Virus record (IMG/VR): IMGVR_UViG_3300023703_000810
Origin: an uncultured virus (IMG/VR IMGVR_UViG_3300023703_000810)
Lineage: Duplodnaviria; Heunggongvirae; Uroviricota; Caudoviricetes
DNA length: 59,919 nt
Reading direction: 5' to 3' (one strand)
The first letter of the stretch is position 1, and each line of letters begins with the position of its first letter. A program made the translations under genes and the position numbers. This document shows positions 3,363 to 58,507 of this stretch, in pieces. Under the pieces are notes generated by a model. The model made no database searches, was not told where the DNA came from, and saw nothing but the letters and a program-made list of their open reading frames with translations.

Positions 3363-3644
3363 ATGATTAAAGTATTTAAATTGATTAATGGTGAAGAACT
3401 TATTGCTGATGTATCCTCATCTTCTGATAGTGGTTATCATTTAGACAACGCAGCTAATATCGTATTACAACCAACAGACTCTGGCATTAGCGTAGGACTG
3501 GCACCATACATGCCATACGTTGATGGTAAAATCTATCTGAATAAGTCAGCAATTGCATCAGAAGGTGAACCAGCAGTAGAAATGCGAAATGAGTATAGCT
3601 CTCGTTTCGGTACAGGAATCCAGATCGCTAACGTGATGCCTTAA
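3363..3644 (+). CDS. Conserved T4-like small protein (Sm-like fold possible)
   Basis: IKVFKLINGEELIA...APYMPY...YSSRFGTGI pattern common in T4-like phages. Confidence 0.65.
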   Translation: MIKVFKLINGEELIADVSSSSDSGYHLDNAANIVLQPTDSGISVGLAPYMPYVDGKIYLNKSAIASEGEPAVEMRNEYSSRFGTGIQIANVMP

Positions 3645-3646
3645 TC

Positions 3647-4564
3647 ATGCAAGGCGATCTTGCAAAATCCATACTAGAAAAGTATGGTGGAAATTTAGAA
3701 CGTCTAAATGTCCATACACATATGGGATGTAACCTAACTTGCTCTGGTTGCTCTCATCACTCAGAGTTTGTTGATGTCTCCGAATCTGTAGACATTGAAC
3801 AGCTTATCAAAGACTTAGAAATCCTTCTAGAAAAAACTGAGATAAGAACATTCCACATTCTTGGTGGAGAGCCATTGCTCAACCCCAAAGGCACTAAAGC
3901 TGTATGTGAGTATCTTATCTCAAAGGGTAAGAAGGTTAAGTTGTTGACCAATGGTTTCTATGTTAATAAGCATGACGATTGGTTGCTTGATTTAGTTGAA
4001 CGTGGAATGACTTTAAAAATATCAGTCCACGTTGGTCCAGGTGATAAGAGTAGAGACAATCTTGCTGAGAAGGTTTTAGATTTTTATAAGAAAGCTATAG
4101 CCAAAAATATTAAGTTCATGCGAAGAAACACTTTGTATGAAGATCAAGACTTTGGATGGATTGAGATCTCCAATGAATGGCAACGTAAGAAAGAGATCTG
4201 GGGGCATATCATCAAGTATGAAGGTGATAAAGTCTATCCATTTAACTCTGACAAAGACAAAGCATTCAAGATCTGCGAGACTAATTGCCCTCAGTTGTAT
4301 AAGGGTAAATTATATAAGTGTTCTCATACAGCGTACCTTTCAGATATGCTAGCTATTAAAGAACAGCTAGATGATCCAGAGTGGGCTCCATATTTAAAAT
4401 ATGATGGTGTAGATATTAATGATAACTCTGCTGTAGAAGAATTCTTGCAGACTGTTTACACTGCTGAAGATGTATGTTCATCTTGTCCTGAGACAAAACA
4501 GTACATTACAATGAATCAAGACATTTCTATTAAAAAGAAAGTTATCCCAATTAAACATCTTTGA
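3647..4564 (+). CDS. Radical SAM protein
   Basis: CNLTCSGC (CxxxCxxC), GGEPLL, TNG, C-terminal Cys cluster. Confidence 0.9.
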   Translation: MQGDLAKSILEKYGGNLERLNVHTHMGCNLTCSGCSHHSEFVDVSESVDIEQLIKDLEILLEKTEIRTFHILGGEPLLNPKGTKAVCEYLISKGKKVKLLTNGFYVNKHDDWLLDLVERGMTLKISVHVGPGDKSRDNLAEKVLDFYKKAIAKNIKFMRRNTLYEDQDFGWIEISNEWQRKKEIWGHIIKYEGDKVYPFNSDKDKAFKICETNCPQLYKGKLYKCSHTAYLSDMLAIKEQLDDPEWAPYLKYDGVDINDNSAVEEFLQTVYTAEDVCSSCPETKQYITMNQDISIKKKVIPIKHL

Positions 4565-23042: not shown

Positions 23043-23738
23043 ATGCAATTCCTAGAAAATGCAAACTACGACTGGCTGGAGTTGTTAAACTTCAGCACAC
23101 GCCCATTTAGAGCGAAATTCATTCCATCTAAAATTTGGAGAGACCTAGACAGGTATCGTAATGATTCTGTCGGTCTCTCCAACTACGTTAAGAAGTGGCG
23201 CACTAAAATTGAGTGGCAACCTCAGAAATCAAAAGCCAAGGTCTATGACACTTACCTTGCACTAGGTGGAGAATACTCTCCCGAAGATCGCCAGTGCATC
23301 ATACAAATACTAACCCAAGATTTCAAGAACTTCAAGTTCTCAGAAGAGTCATGGGATAAATTAAAATTCCGTTTTATTCAAACTCTTATGCATGAGATGA
23401 TTCACTTCATGCAATACGATCGTCGAGATGATCAGTGGAGTAACTACGTAGTTCCATACAAACGAGTTGGTCACAAAAAGAAAGACGAAGAGAGAAGATA
23501 CCTTTCAGAGTTTGATGAGATCCAAGCGTATGCCCACTGCATATATCTTGACTTCAAAATGTATCGCCCGAATGTCCCAATAGAAGTATTACTAAGTCGT
23601 TGTAAGAAAAAGATAGACTCAAGAACTCTACACTATGTTCTTAAGACATTTGACTACGATTTTAACAACAACCATTCTCCGCAGATGATCATCCAGCAGA
23701 TAGGTAAGTGGGACAGGAAGTATAATCGCTTGACCTAA
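23043..23738 (+). CDS. Hypothetical protein with HExxH metallopeptidase motif
   Basis: LMHEMIHFMQ...EIQAYA. Confidence 0.6.
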   Translation: MQFLENANYDWLELLNFSTRPFRAKFIPSKIWRDLDRYRNDSVGLSNYVKKWRTKIEWQPQKSKAKVYDTYLALGGEYSPEDRQCIIQILTQDFKNFKFSEESWDKLKFRFIQTLMHEMIHFMQYDRRDDQWSNYVVPYKRVGHKKKDEERRYLSEFDEIQAYAHCIYLDFKMYRPNVPIEVLLSRCKKKIDSRTLHYVLKTFDYDFNNNHSPQMIIQQIGKWDRKYNRLT

Positions 23739-50932: not shown

Positions 50933-51011
50933 TCCGAGAAACCCAAGCAAGGTGCAGGGGCTTGACTGTTAATCAATGGTTAGATGAGTTCGATTCTCAT
51001 ACTCGGAGCCA
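50933..51011 (+). tRNA. tRNA-Asn(GTT)
   Basis: TTGA-CTGTTAA-TCAA; G73 CCA. Confidence 0.85.
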
Positions 51012-51094
51012 GAGCAAATAGTAATCTTGTTTTGATGCATGGTTACTCAATGTTTGTTAGTTTCAATGGGTGCTATAGAAACTAACACCAATTT

Positions 51095-51169
51095 GGGGAC
51101 AGTAGTGGGCTACGGTTCTCCCTTGCAAGGAGGATGTCTAGAAGGATTCGATTTCCTCGGTCTCCACCA
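51095..51169 (+). tRNA. tRNA-Ala(TGC), atypical D and T arms
   Basis: TCTCC-CTTGCAA-GGAGG; G3:U70; A73 CCA. Confidence 0.7.
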
Positions 51170-51175
51170 AATTAC

Positions 51176-51281
51176 ACACTGCTGAGGTGGTGTTAGAAGT
51201 TCTGCAGGATGACTAGCATAAGGCTACCCGCCTGATGTTTCAAATACTCTGGGGCGGCAGGTTTCGAGTCCTGCGTAGTGT
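51176..51281 (+). ncRNA. tRNA-like RNA (acceptor-like helix plus T arm, no canonical D/anticodon arms)
   Basis: ACACTGC/GTAGTGT; GCAGG-TTTCGAGT-CCTGC. Confidence 0.45.
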
Positions 51282-51312
51282 GGTTTAATATAGAGTTTAC
51301 ATTCATCATCAA

Positions 51313-51394
51313 TTTTCATACAGGTACTATGGAGTACGAGGGGCTTTGAAACGTTCGGTAGGTGCGAGGTTCGATTCCCGCACTTGTGTGAAAA
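51313..51394 (+). ncRNA. Degenerate tRNA-like element with extended acceptor helix, no CCA
   Basis: TTTTCATACAGGT/ACTTGTGTGAAAA; T-loop GGTTCGATTCC. Confidence 0.45.
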
Positions 51395-51405
51395 TTAATG
51401 ATTAT

Positions 51406-51480
51406 GGAGCTATCGTCTATCGGTTAGGACACTGGGTTTTCAACCCAGTAAGAGGGGTTCAACTCCCCTATCGAGTACCA
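51406..51480 (+). pseudogene. tRNA-Glu(TTC) with unpaired acceptor stem
   Basis: D, anticodon and T arms intact, but GGAGCTA cannot pair with ATCGAGT. Confidence 0.7.
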
Positions 51481-53725: not shown

Positions 53726-53883
53726 GAATCGAGCAACGTCAGTTGCTTGTCAATCCAGACAAAGGGTCTGGCGTGTTAATTCGGGTTGCTTGCTAGCAAT
53801 CTTTTCGGTACTCACGATAGAAGTACGGCTAAAGTTCGTAATGCACAATATTCAAAATTACTAAATAGATGTAGGAGGAATAA

Positions 53884-54393
53884 ATGTTCTACTATCTCTA
53901 TGAAGTAAAAAACGATGTAAATGGTAAAATTTACGTCGGTGTTCATAAAACAACAGACATGAATGATGGCTATATGGGCTCTGGTTCTATTATCAAACGT
54001 GCCATCAAGAAATATGGAATTGATAATTTTACCAAAACAGTGTTAGAAACCTTTAACTCAGAAGAGGAAATGTTCCAAAGAGAAAAAGAGTTTGTAACCG
54101 ATGAGTTCTTAATGCGTGAAGATGTCTACAATTTAAGGCGTGGTGGTCTGGGTGGTTTTGATCATATCAATAAACTCGGTATCAACACCAAAAATATATG
54201 GTCAGATGAAGTCTCTGAACGTAGAGCCAAGACTAGAAAAGAGAAAAAGTTTCAACAAGGTTGTAATAATACTCAGTTCGGTTCTATGTGGATAACTGAT
54301 GGTTCTTCTAATAAGAAGATTCCAAAAGATTCAGAGATTCCATTTGGTTGGAGAAAGGGTGCCACATTGAGTGGACGCCCTAAGAAAGTTTAG
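53884..54393 (+). CDS. GIY-YIG (Seg-like) homing endonuclease in the tRNA array
   Basis: YLYEVKN..NGKIYVGVH...YMGSG...YNL; CTAAATA promoter upstream. Confidence 0.88.
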   Translation: MFYYLYEVKNDVNGKIYVGVHKTTDMNDGYMGSGSIIKRAIKKYGIDNFTKTVLETFNSEEEMFQREKEFVTDEFLMREDVYNLRRGGLGGFDHINKLGINTKNIWSDEVSERRAKTRKEKKFQQGCNNTQFGSMWITDGSSNKKIPKDSEIPFGWRKGATLSGRPKKV

Positions 54394-54467
54394 GTCTCAA
54401 AGTGTTCATGGACGCACGTAGCACTGTCACTGCTAAAGAAGGGGATCGTTACCCCTTGAGACCGCCA
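54393..54467 (+). tRNA. tRNA-Asp(GTC), atypical T loop
   Basis: TAGCA-CTGTCAC-TGCTA; GGTCTCA/TGAGACC; G73. Confidence 0.82.
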
Positions 54468-54470
54468 AGT

Positions 54471-54633
54471 TTTGTAAGTGTAGATGTTGAGAAAGCAGGA
54501 ACTCGAAATCCCTGCGAGTTGTCAGTGCGACAACCTTGTATCAACTATTACTACGTACCTCTAACCAGTCTGCAGCTTCAAAGAAAATACTGGTAAAATG
54601 ATGGAAAATGAGCGAGGTTCCATTACTTACAAA
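54471..54633 (+). ncRNA. Unknown ~160-nt structured RNA
   Basis: TTTGTAAGT/ACTTACAAA closure; GCAGG/CCTGC, GTTGTC/GACAAC, ACCAGT/ACTGGT helices. Confidence 0.5.
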
Positions 54634-54642
54634 TTTAATTCG

Positions 54643-54650
54643 TATAAATA
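54643..54650 (+). promoter_or_regulatory. T4-type late promoter directly before the suppressor tRNA
   Basis: TATAAATA. Confidence 0.7.
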
Positions 54651-54657
54651 CGATTAT

Positions 54658-54732
54658 GCGTTTGAAGCTGTATGGTATAGCAGGAGCCTCTAAAACTCTG
54701 GATAGCAGGTTCGATTCCTGTCAGACGCACCA
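54658..54732 (+). tRNA. Amber suppressor tRNA (CTA)
   Basis: GCGTTTG/CAGACGC acceptor, loop CTCTAAA, GCAGG-TTCGATT-CCTGT, A73 CCA. Confidence 0.85.
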
Positions 54733-54754
54733 CTTTTTATTGAAAGGAAAACAG

Positions 54755-54790
54755 ATGAAAGATTTCCGTTTGTAGATTCGCCCTCCGTAA
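54755..54790 (+). promoter_or_regulatory. Amber-containing leader minigene MKDFRL*IRPP*
   Basis: AAAGGA RBS; followed by anti-SD TTTCTTCTTG (54792-54801) complementary to CAAGGAGAAA (54828-37). Confidence 0.6.
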
Positions 54791-54841
54791 GTTTCTTCTT
54801 GGGCATTGAAAACAATTTTATAAAACACAAGGAGAAATTAA

Positions 54842-55222
54842 ATGAGTATCGAATTAAAAATTAAAGCAAAACACCTCGCTCTTGAGCCACAAGTTATTCG
54901 TCACGAAGAAGCTAAACTTAAGAAGCAAATCAAGTATCATCGTTCAAGCGACGAAGTATCAGCCTTTACTCTGGCACGAAAGCTAGATGAGTTGATTACC
55001 CATCGTCGTTGGAATGTCCGTAACGAATCCCGAGCAACTACCTTGGCAAGAGCGTTTCTTGCAGGTAAAATGTACTCTTCTGTTGAGAAGAGAAGCAAAG
55101 CGAATGATATGATGTTCTTTATGTACATCCTACCTCGCATACATGTTATGGTGACAAAGTACGGTAAAGGTGACCAACGCAAGATGACACGTGATGACAT
55201 CTGGCAATGGTCAAAGAAGTAA
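54842..55222 (+). CDS. Basic hypothetical protein (ESRATTLARAFLAGKMY..VE motif)
   Basis: AAGGAG RBS, 126-aa ORF. Confidence 0.8.
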   Translation: MSIELKIKAKHLALEPQVIRHEEAKLKKQIKYHRSSDEVSAFTLARKLDELITHRRWNVRNESRATTLARAFLAGKMYSSVEKRSKANDMMFFMYILPRIHVMVTKYGKGDQRKMTRDDIWQWSKK

Positions 55223-55227
55223 ATTAT

Positions 55228-55303
55228 TGCGGCGTGGAGAAATGGTATCTCATCAGTCTCATAAGCTGAAGATAGTAGGTTCGATTCCTACCGTTCGCAA
55301 CCA
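55228..55303 (+). tRNA. tRNA-Met(CAT), initiator-like
   Basis: TCAGT-CTCATAA-GCTGA; A11:U24-type D stem; AACCA end. Confidence 0.8.
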
Positions 55304-56160: not shown

Positions 56161-56619
56161 ATGAGAAATGACATAGAACCAAGAAAAGAAGAAATTCTTG
56201 GTTGGATTGCAGAAGATAGATCAAAAGCTGAGATAGCTAAACTTCTTTGTTGTCGGGTTGGTACTCTTCAAAATGCCCTCTCTAGGATGGGTATTGAGTA
56301 TAACGGTAATAAAGGTAGTAGAGGTAGAAAATCAGACAAGAAATATAAATCTGCTGAGGTTTATATGACAGGAGATACCTATATCTCTAGTCATAGATTA
56401 AAATTAAAACTTATCAGAGACGGTGTTAAAGAACACCGTTGTGAAGTTTGTGGTACTACAGAATGGATGGGAAATCCTGTTCCAGTTGAATTGGATCATA
56501 TTGATGGTAATCGCTACAATAATGATCTAAGTAATCTGAGAATTATTTGTCCAAACTGTCATGCACAAACTGATACATATTCTGGTAAGAATGTAGGTAA
56601 GTATGGGGATGTGATGTAA
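56161..56619 (+). CDS. HNH homing endonuclease
   Basis: CEVC...ELDHIDGN..NN...NL..ICPNCH; 3' end overlaps tRNA-Leu. Confidence 0.9.
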   Translation: MRNDIEPRKEEILGWIAEDRSKAEIAKLLCCRVGTLQNALSRMGIEYNGNKGSRGRKSDKKYKSAEVYMTGDTYISSHRLKLKLIRDGVKEHRCEVCGTTEWMGNPVPVELDHIDGNRYNNDLSNLRIICPNCHAQTDTYSGKNVGKYGDVM

Positions 56620-56867: not shown

Positions 56868-57035
56868 ATGAGTGACGGTGGTAAAGGCGACAAACGTCGT
56901 CCAGAAGATAAAGATCAATGGGACAACGGATACGATCGTATCTGGGGTAACAAAAAGAAAGTCGATGAGTCTGAAGACAAACCGACTAGAAATAATGAAG
57001 AGACCCAAGAAGTCTTGAAACTGAAAGATAACTAA
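56868..57035 (+). CDS. 55-aa conserved phage peptide (MSDGGKGDKRRP...YDRIWG)
   Basis: AGGAG RBS; TAATG-coupled to the next gene. Confidence 0.7.
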   Translation: MSDGGKGDKRRPEDKDQWDNGYDRIWGNKKKVDESEDKPTRNNEETQEVLKLKDN

Positions 57036-58507
57036 TGATTACTGTTGGTATCGGTAAGGCATATCATGACTGCAGTATTTGTGTTAATGTTGATGGTGTA
57101 GTTAAATATGCTAAATGGGAAAGACAAGTACAAGATAAACATGCTAAAGCCCCTGACTGGTGGTTTTGGCAAAAGCTATCTGATTGGAATATACCGTTCG
57201 ACCAGATTGATTTAATTGTAGAAACCGATGGCGGTGGTGTATCAAACTTTCATAAGATAACAAGACTACCATATGGTGGTAATACATCAATTCGAAAGAA
57301 TAAAAAACATTTTATACTTGATCATCATTTAGCTCATGTGTGGTCTATATCATCGTATAATAATGATAATGCTGTAGTCATTGATGGTAAAGGTTCTGGT
57401 GACCATACTGTTATGGTAAAGAATAATGATAACATAACAAGACTAAAGTGTAGTAATCCAGCGCATATTTTTGATAATATTGGTAAGATACTAAATCTTG
57501 GTTCTAAGCATACAGACTATGCTGGTAAAGTAATGGGGTTAATCCCATATGGAAAGCCAGTAAAAGAAGTTTTTGATTTACTAAAAAAAATTAGTTCGAA
57601 TAATTTATCTGATTGCTTAAAATGCGTAAATATAGGTACGAATTCTCCTCCAGACGAGAAATCTTGTTTTGATGATGATTGGATTAAACGTCTAAACGCA
57701 ATTTCAACTGTTAACGAAATTTGTTATGATTTTGTTAAGTTACAGTTTAGCTCTCTGGACAAATCTAAACCTGTTTATTATTCTGGCGGTGTCGCTTTGA
57801 ATGTTGACTGGAATCGAAGACTACTAGATGATGGTTACAACTTAATAGTTGAACCTGCTTCTTATGATGGTGGATTGTCTATTGGTTGTATGAGATATGC
57901 ATGCTACATGCTTAAAGTTGATCAGCCAGTGATTAAAGATTTTCCTTATATCCAAGATGATGAGGCTCCAGATTCCACTCCATCTATTTCAACGATTAAA
58001 AAAGTAGCTGAGATGCTCGCTAACGGTAAGATTGTAGGATGGTATCAGGGACATGGTGAACTTGGACCACGTGCTCTAGGTAATAGATCTATTCTAATGA
58101 ATCCAACGATCAAAGATGGTAAGGATATTTTGAATAGTAAAGTCAAACGTAGAGAATGGTTTAGACCTTTCGGTGCCAGCGTTAAGAAAGATAAAGCAAG
58201 TAAGTATTTTGATTTGGATGAAAATCCATACATGCTATTTACTGCGAATGTTATTGATAAGAACTTACCTGCAATAACTCACGTTGATGGCACTTGTCGT
58301 CACCAGACAGTTACTGTAGAATCAAACAGATTGTTCTATTCTCTGTTAGATGAGTTTGAATCATTAACAGGATTGCCAGTATTGTTGAATACCTCGTTGA
58401 ATCTAGGTGGTAAACCTATAGCTGGCAGAATACAAGATGCAATTGAATTGTTCAATACTACAGAGATGGATGCTCTTTGTGTTGGTGATACGTTGTATAT
58501 AAAATAA
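57035..58507 (+). CDS. NodU/CmcH-family O-carbamoyltransferase
   Basis: HDCS, DHHLAH, GKVMGL, GGVALN, ELGPRALGNRS, REWFRPF, LNTSLN. Confidence 0.93.
   Translation: MITVGIGKAYHDCSICVNVDGVVKYAKWERQVQDKHAKAPDWWFWQKLSDWNIPFDQIDLIVETDGGGVSNFHKITRLPYGGNTSIRKNKKHFILDHHLAHVWSISSYNNDNAVVIDGKGSGDHTVMVKNNDNITRLKCSNPAHIFDNIGKILNLGSKHTDYAGKVMGLIPYGKPVKEVFDLLKKISSNNLSDCLKCVNIGTNSPPDEKSCFDDDWIKRLNAISTVNEICYDFVKLQFSSLDKSKPVYYSGGVALNVDWNRRLLDDGYNLIVEPASYDGGLSIGCMRYACYMLKVDQPVIKDFPYIQDDEAPDSTPSISTIKKVAEMLANGKIVGWYQGHGELGPRALGNRSILMNPTIKDGKDILNSKVKRREWFRPFGASVKKDKASKYFDLDENPYMLFTANVIDKNLPAITHVDGTCRHQTVTVESNRLFYSLLDEFESLTGLPVLLNTSLNLGGKPIAGRIQDAIELFNTTEMDALCVGDTLYIK

Follow-up and report, generated by a model that had tools for sequence, protein, structure and literature searches.

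Why should a phage that uses the standard genetic code carry an amber-suppressor tRNA, and why should that tRNA stand directly before a short leader open reading frame (ORF) interrupted by the codon it is expected to read? The question is raised by a 59,919-nucleotide (nt) stretch of an uncultured freshwater virus (IMG/VR record IMGVR_UViG_3300023703_000810), here called the window, in which a tRNA with anticodon CUA is followed by the leader MKDFRL-TAG-Ile-Arg-Pro-Pro-TAA and by the gene for a 126-aa protein, whose Shine-Dalgarno (SD) sequence is predicted to lie in a helix. We consider it likely that these parts form a phage cassette, in which a suppressor tRNA is coupled to a leader that tests UAG and to a protein that serves as the translational read-out, read-through of the leader turning the gene on. 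As judged by comparison of the related loci, the three parts are conserved, the leader stop is specifically amber and the helix changes in a compensatory manner; a pause at the Pro-Pro-stop and the ON direction of the switch are what we infer from them. The elements that a sequence-only reading had placed in this stretch (TATAAATA, the tRNA, the leader SD, the leader ORF, the helix arms and the 126-aa ORF) were all found at those positions.

In IMG/VR, 238 candidate stretches yielded 100 confirmed relatives, and the best 80 loci, with 41-97% protein identity, were kept. A tblastn search of a phage collection with the 126-aa protein returned two records only, Synechococcus phage BUCT-ZZ01 and phage DSS3_MAL1 (39-41% identity), and in both of these cultured phages a tRNA(CTA) lies just upstream of the gene and is followed by a leader that contains TAG in frame and closes with Pro-Pro. 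The two leaders read MKS-TAG-IRPPP-TGA, directly followed by TCTCCTTGA opposite TCAAGGAGA, and MGGDAS-TAG-INLKPP-TAA. Among prokaryotes (one genome per species, 185,579 species) there was a single match, a 156-kb contig of a metagenome-assembled genome with the tRNA and the leader MTWT-TAG-IFKPP-TAA; the contig is probably a phage and was counted apart. The 80 IMG/VR loci, the window and the two cultured phages make up a set of 83 loci, 2 of which are cut by contig ends, leaving 81 complete loci. No other protein neighbour of the gene is conserved across the loci, and the unit is therefore the tRNA, the leader and the gene.

The leader stop and the adjacent tRNA

A leader with an in-frame TAG followed by Pro-Pro was found in 81 of the 81 complete loci, and the idea that homologues of the protein would share such a leader has thus come through the comparison intact. 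In every one of them the leader has its own SD, as does the leader ORF of a translational attenuator. In most of the loci (67/81, class 1) the leader has the form TAG-x(1-7)-Pro-Pro-(x)-stop, and 35-70 nt separate its end from the ATG of the gene. Elsewhere in the same loci this pattern occurs once in 209,682 positions, and the whole genome of the window holds one in-context match only. In 12 loci (class 2) the TAG and Pro-Pro are followed by an open frame that runs towards the gene, staying open up to 22 codons past the TAG; it ends 3-18 nt before the ATG in four loci, overlaps the ATG as ATGA in six and is fused to the gene in frame, with no stop, in two. In L037 and L044 the post-TAG frame (VSRSPPKF...) enters the gene without a stop, so that read-through there would give an N-terminally extended protein. 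The other two complete loci are longer variants, with the stop 90 nt upstream in L001 and with TAG, ~90 codons and then VPP-TAA in L061. The L061 leader (IMG/VR record G005), in a region ~300 nt before the gene, reads MS-TAG and then the ~90 codons, which look like an ORF inserted in the part translated after read-through.

Among the 50 distinct leaders, the peptide before the TAG has six residues in 30, the TAG is followed by a purine in 48, the residue before Pro-Pro is R, K or H in 37, and Pro-Pro is written by 13 different dicodons. A purine after UAG is a context that favours amber suppression in Escherichia coli. The bias towards amber was assessed on loci sought by Pro-Pro-stop alone, with TAG not required. 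In the 46 distinct loci obtained in this way, TAG was counted 45 times in frame and 8 times out of frame, and TAA or TGA once in frame and 28 times out of frame. From the in-frame and out-of-frame counts it appears that selection acts at the protein level on the frame that follows the stop, and the excess of TAG over TAA and TGA in frame indicates that the leader stop is specifically amber, matching the anticodon of the adjacent tRNA. Purifying selection on the in-frame Pro-Pro, as the comparison of loci reveals it, argues for translation through the leader TAG.

The tRNA of the window has the anticodon loop CUCUAAA, the discriminator A73 and an encoded 3' CCA, and its best match among the other 29 tRNAs of the window is 71%. 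All 54 distinct tRNA(CTA) sequences among the relatives carry the loop (C/T)TCTAAA. The selection on the frame after the TAG gives indirect support to the view that the tRNA may be charged and may insert an amino acid at UAG. ARAGORN called a tRNA(CTA) upstream of the gene and on the same strand in 74 of the 81 complete loci, at a distance of usually 94-129 nt, sometimes 208-331 nt and once 815 nt.

The helix over the gene start and the direction of the proposed switch

The arm that follows the leader stop in the window, TTTCTTCTTG, and the arm that contains the SD of the gene, CAAGGAGAAA, can form a helix of 10 bp with one G-U. The window alone is weak evidence, and the case beyond chance rests on the comparison. 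Duplex-energy tests were used instead of a covariance model because the helix register differs between loci, and were run on 48 non-redundant class-1 loci with the 25 nt from the Pro codons onward set against the 24 nt before the gene ATG. The cognate duplexes had a mean energy of -13.3 kcal/mol compared with -7.6 for non-cognate pairs, and 0 of 10,000 permutations reached the cognate mean. The cognate arm was the best partner among the loci in 21/48 cases. When it was compared with all other 25-nt windows of its own locus, the arm was the best partner of the SD in 33/48 and within the top 1% in 41/48 (mean z -4.5). In the duplex predicted for each sequence, the two G's of the SD are paired in 48/48 and 47/48 loci, and the flanking helix positions each show 3-4 Watson-Crick pair types (position -3, for instance, is G-C in 21, U-A in 13 and A-U in 11); there are 43 distinct 3' arms among the 48 loci. 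A helix that pairs with the SD and undergoes compensatory change, a feature of attenuators, was thus found, with the caveat that RNAalifold gave no consensus. The minimum-energy folds of the IRPP subgroup also contain a possible outer helix, in which ATTCGN just past the TAG pairs with ATCGAAT in codons 3-5 of the gene; it was not established, because protein coding fixes the gene side and it is missing from other subgroups.

The effect of a ribosome on this helix was modelled by masking 15 nt on either side of the first P-site base. The mean probability that the SD is unpaired was 0.17 in free RNA, stayed at 0.17 when the TAG was occupied and reached 0.64 when the ribosome stood at the second stop; for the window the values were 0.00, 0.00 and 0.85. 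With the second stop occupied, 44 of 50 distinct loci showed a rise in this probability of over 0.2, in agreement with the earlier proposal that the SD is closed while the ribosome stands at the TAG and that the anti-SD is covered once it stands at the Pro-Pro-stop. The read-through geometry is also borne out by natural variants in which read-through ribosomes would run straight into the gene start. For E. coli, one report states that C-terminal Pro-Pro interferes with termination and arrests ribosomes 'in all genetic contexts tested' (PMC3834316). It is the footprint folding, this report and the 12 class-2 loci that lead us to read-through as the ON state; in class 2 the same dependence would arise from read-through ribosomes that translate into the gene start.

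The combined results suggest a model in which transcription of the cassette would probably come from a T4-late-type promoter of its own right next to the tRNA, and ribosomes would start on the leader MKDFRL. Whenever release factor 1 (RF1) wins at UAG, the ribosome would leave, the anti-SD/SD helix would stay closed and the gene would be off. When the suppressor tRNA wins, Ile-Arg-Pro-Pro would be added and the TAA reached, where release after the C-terminal Pro-Pro is expected to be slow; the paused ribosome would then cover the anti-SD arm and free the SD, allowing other ribosomes to start on the 126-aa gene.

Several observations weigh against this model. The loci are related to one another, the 83 loci being reduced to 50 distinct leaders. 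The window hairpin has an energy of -14.9 kcal/mol (z = -2.0), and 8 of 200 shuffles fold as well. RNAalifold, applied to a MAFFT alignment of the 48 sequences, gave no consensus structure or pairs, because the helix register shifts between loci, and the pair tallies given above derive from per-sequence duplex predictions and hence lean towards pairing. The exact element TATAAATA is not conserved, being present in 4 of 56 distinct upstream regions. TAG stops are common in another module-carrying genome, where they end 38 of 157 ORFs (24%), and amber suppression must therefore be weak, brief or tolerated. Finally, 7 of the 81 complete loci lack a tRNA(CTA) called by ARAGORN. One of these, L075, has a tRNA detected by Rfam with the loop CTCTAAA, and two, L029 and L057, have odd ARAGORN tRNA calls; L014, L061, L072 and L073 have no tRNA(CTA) nearby, and no suppressor tRNA is present anywhere in the 150-kb, 75% complete record that holds L061.

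The TAG/Pro-Pro leader is nevertheless kept in the last four loci and in the 150-kb record, as would be expected if the leader reported RF1 activity or the translation state of the host, with the tRNA adjacent for some other reason (e.g. shared transcription) and with read-through brought about by near-cognate host tRNAs or low RF1. The level of RF1 would be sensed in any case, because tRNA and RF1 compete whenever read-through takes place. A sensor of RF1 in which the tRNA has no part is nonetheless unlikely, since a tRNA(CTA) stands directly upstream in 74/81 complete loci across the 41-97% range of protein identity, since 45 of 46 distinct loci have an amber codon as their in-frame stop, TAA or TGA hardly ever taking its place, which matches the anticodon, and since the record without the tRNA is only 75% complete.

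It is very improbable that the element acts as RNA only, the hairpin being a constitutive translation damper or a processing or stability signal after the tRNA, and the TAG...CCNCCN...stop being untranslated. The CCNCC motif does resemble the anti-SD of 16S rRNA, and the Pro codons pair with the SD in some loci (e.g. L002, L045 and L064), but 30 of 50 distinct leaders have A as the N of CCNCC, and this A would not pair with the A of GGAGG. Further, the distance from TAG to Pro-Pro varies yet remains in frame (45 TAG in frame versus 8 out of frame), an SD and an ATG always precede the leader, and the class-2 frames stay open past the TAG for as many as 22 codons. An inverted logic, with termination at the TAG permitting expression (by re-initiation or an alternative fold) and read-through to the Pro-Pro-stop shutting the gene off, would, if suppression were promoted by the protein, make for simple negative control but has no direct support, and is scarcely credible given that a ribosome at the TAG leaves SD pairing unchanged (0.17 versus 0.17) whereas one at the second stop opens it (0.64), that the second stop is too far from the gene ATG (44-62 nt) to occlude it, and that the post-TAG frame reaches, overlaps or is fused to the gene start in 12 loci, a positive coupling.

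Possible promoter, output protein and genome context

Table 1. Features of the proposed cassette in the window (SD, Shine-Dalgarno)
Feature	Position	Strand	Basis and remarks
TATAAATA, T4-late-promoter-like -10 element	54643..54650	+	Sequence; ends 7 nt before the tRNA
Amber-suppressor tRNA gene, anticodon CUA	54658..54732	+	ARAGORN; Rfam 52.2 bits against a gathering score of 29
Leader SD, AAAGGA	54743..54748	+	Sequence; SD-like purine runs precede the leader ATG in relatives too
Leader part 1, MKDFRL then amber TAG	54755..54775	+	ATG AAA GAT TTC CGT TTG TAG (TAG at 54773-54775)
Read-through extension, Ile-Arg-Pro-Pro-stop	54776..54790	+	ATT CGC CCT CCG TAA (TAA at 54788-54790)
Anti-SD arm, TTTCTTCTTG	54792..54801	+	Pairs with CAAGGAGAAA; starts 1 nt past the leader TAA
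SD-containing arm of the 126-aa gene, CAAGGAGAAA	54828..54837	+	Partner of TTTCTTCTTG
Gene for the 126-aa basic, all-helical protein, the switch output	54842..55222	+	ORF

The late promoter that had been claimed upstream of the tRNA has partial support, from a motif and a sigma factor rather than from an exact element. TATAAATA itself, whose poor conservation is noted above, occurs 4 times in the window compared with 2.6 expected, and 21 of 100 shuffles reach 4. The motif TA[AT]ATA, however, ends 4-12 nt 5' of tRNA(CUA) in 29 of 56 distinct relatives versus a background of 1%. Among the genes of the phage is one for a late sigma factor of the gp55 type (E 7e-62 to phrog_234, late sigma transcription factor), and with TATAAATA as -10 element both parts of a T4-type late promoter system are present; in addition, three structural genes, those for the head scaffold, tail tube and baseplate tube-cap, have NATAAATA at 30-41 nt upstream. 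A dedicated late-type promoter starting at about the 5' end of the tRNA is plausible because of the TA[AT]ATA motif, the late sigma factor and the occurrence of NATAAATA before structural genes. One RNA-library contig (833 nt, depth 447, from a relative with 29 differences) starts at 54653, a weak hint of transcription from there, with the proviso that contigs cannot show RNA ends and that the library may hold DNA.

Few ORFs of at least 100 aa end in TAG in the genome of the window (3/165) or in three relatives (7/165, 7/168 and 12/165). Avoidance of TAG was considered as general support for suppression and rejected in view of the one module-carrying genome rich in TAG stops; low use of TAG elsewhere cannot be credited to the tRNA.

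The 126-aa protein belongs to a large family: one search returned 315 relatives, and a second, at E<=1e-3, 2,795 cluster representatives. In the confident, all-helical AlphaFold2 model (predicted local distance difference test score, pLDDT, 93.7), residues 3-31 and 41-73 form a long hairpin and three short helices come after it. The protein has no Pfam or PHROG match, and nothing informative was obtained from the PDB sequence profile or the ESM Atlas. Searches with the model were similarly unrevealing: Foldseek against the PDB gave an uninformative best E of 0.8, VIA-align wide gave generic helical hairpins only (best Z 7.7), and BFVD returned uncharacterised family members only. A longer form of the family is represented by one 333-aa protein with an XPG_I domain, encoded on a single 1.3-kb contig. 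Neither an RF-1/PCRF domain nor a GGQ was found in the 126-aa product, in keeping with the empty Pfam search, and no RF-1 domain was found anywhere in the phage genome. Complex prediction of the protein with E. coli RF1 scored 0.00 ('no answer'), which is evidence neither way.

Our best guess is that the 126-aa protein is a feedback regulator of UAG decoding that binds the suppressor tRNA or the termination and decoding machinery. We lean towards negative feedback, a homeostat in which the protein would limit suppression rather than boost it, because TAG still closes 24% of the genes of one phage that carries the module. A wider reading, in which the cassette would be a natural controller of 'genetic-code state', with the tRNA changing the meaning of UAG, the leader measuring it and the helical effector acting back on decoding, is tentative and on balance doubtful. 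Under that reading the binding partner of the effector would be the suppressor tRNA, RF1 or the ribosome.

The virus record to which the window belongs has 166,547 bases and is 96% complete. PHROG matches identify the phage as a T4-like myovirus (baseplate wedge, tail sheath and tube, portal and major head protein), and further matches include gp32-, gp45- and gp59-like replication proteins and two RNA ligases. The standard code is in use, with ORFs of at least 100 aa covering 78% of the genome. The phage does not resemble the stop-codon-recoded phages that read TAG as an amino acid (code 15), as no in-frame TAG was evident in its long ORFs; when TAG was treated as sense, no long gene was meaningfully joined or extended, the TAGs lying upstream of starts or in non-coding frames. 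Related DNA occurs as contigs in freshwater, aquatic, seawater and marine metagenomes and in RNA libraries, which indicates presence only, since contigs do not show transcription. Megablast against the phage collection found no near-identical DNA. The window differs from the genome record by a single base, at window position 23363.

ARAGORN called 30 tRNA genes within the window, and the genome with this cluster also has the two genes for RNA ligases (phrog_755 and phrog_968; genome positions 50952-51443 and 54011-55060, minus strand). This combination is reminiscent of the tRNA-repair genes of T4. A gene for a GIY-YIG homing endonuclease (53884-54393, plus strand; phrog_314, E 9e-42) lies inside the cluster and ends in a TAG that overlaps the first base of tRNA-Asp (54393). 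It looks like a mobile insertion, because a related-phage contig (run X20) skips 544 bases there (53844 to 54389). An HNH endonuclease gene is found at 56161-56619. Also embedded in the cluster is a NodU/TobZ-type carbamoyltransferase gene (57035-58507, plus strand; Carbam_trans_N and Carbam_trans_C; phrog_1601, E 3e-132). The fold of such enzymes is related to that of the t6A-making enzymes, and a role in tRNA modification is possible. Seven nt past the 126-aa gene there is a tRNA-like gene with anticodon CAT (55229-55299, plus strand), which scores 53 bits with Rfam and is not called by ARAGORN; at the same position in relatives a tRNA-Met(CAT) is called, and the acceptor stem of the window copy is weaker than theirs. 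In Synechococcus phage BUCT-ZZ01 (L001), ARAGORN calls a transfer-messenger RNA at 3385-3803, ~500 nt downstream of the module, with the tag peptide ANDETFSMALAA; the annotation of that record lists no RNA genes in this stretch.

Relation to known systems

A search through the main texts of one full-text collection of papers found no description of this module. Among the known systems closest to it are attenuators of the ermC and cat type, in which a short leader ORF has its own SD and an arrested ribosome melts the helix that sequesters a downstream SD. The phage module shares the leader ORF with its own SD and the SD helix melted by arrest, the arrest being proposed here, but its input would be the decoding of a leader stop by a suppressor tRNA rather than a drug or metabolite, and the arrest site would be reached only after read-through. 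Stop-codon read-through by a cognate tRNA would thus be a new input for leader-peptide switches. The prfB gene (release factor 2) offers a second parallel, as an early in-frame UGA and a +1 frameshift inside the gene sense termination efficiency and set the expression of a translation factor. Both systems use an early in-frame stop as the sensor of termination efficiency; the phage module differs in having no frameshift, a UAG stop, a separate leader as sensor and a product that is not a release factor.

The PepNL leader of E. coli pepN arrests ribosomes at its own UGA, and near-cognate read-through by Trp-tRNA relieves the arrest (PMC11890864). PepNL resembles the phage leader as a natural leader peptide in which tRNA read-through of a stop shifts the stall site of the ribosome. 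The phage has a cognate CUA tRNA next door that would read UAG, and read-through is proposed to create the pause; further, PepNL stalls via a mini-hairpin peptide, in contrast to the Pro-Pro-stop motif of the phage leader. Engineered switches for unnatural amino acids with a TAG in the leader, which act on transcription via the tna and trp leaders (PMC6412442), likewise make downstream expression depend on amber suppression. The phage module is natural, would act on translation and is carried with its own tRNA, and the design that engineers chose for unnatural amino acids apparently had no natural precedent before.

With regard to the question of why standard-code phages carry suppressor tRNAs, the cassette suggests that at least one gene is wired to amber suppression, and the module would therefore be a direct and compact read-out of tRNA function in vivo. 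The cultured carriers make it bench-testable, in Synechococcus phage BUCT-ZZ01 on S. elongatus PCC 7942 and in phage DSS3_MAL1 (whose record names no host), and the function of the output protein, a member of a large nameless family, becomes a defined question. A further comparison is with the 'code change module' of stop-codon-recoded phages, where a phage suppressor tRNA is proposed to gate late genes post-transcriptionally; these phages have many in-frame stops in structural and lysis genes and sometimes carry genes for aminoacyl-tRNA synthetases or release factors (10.1101/2021.08.26.457843). A phage-encoded suppressor tRNA that would gate expression is common to both, and the phage described here differs in its standard code, its single gated gene and its leader sensor. 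Should the doubtful notion of a code-state controller prove true, the cassette would point to a controlled, probably late and partial reassignment of UAG in otherwise standard-code T4-like phages, and would be the first natural sensor-effector loop for what a stop codon means, possibly a stage before full phage recoding.

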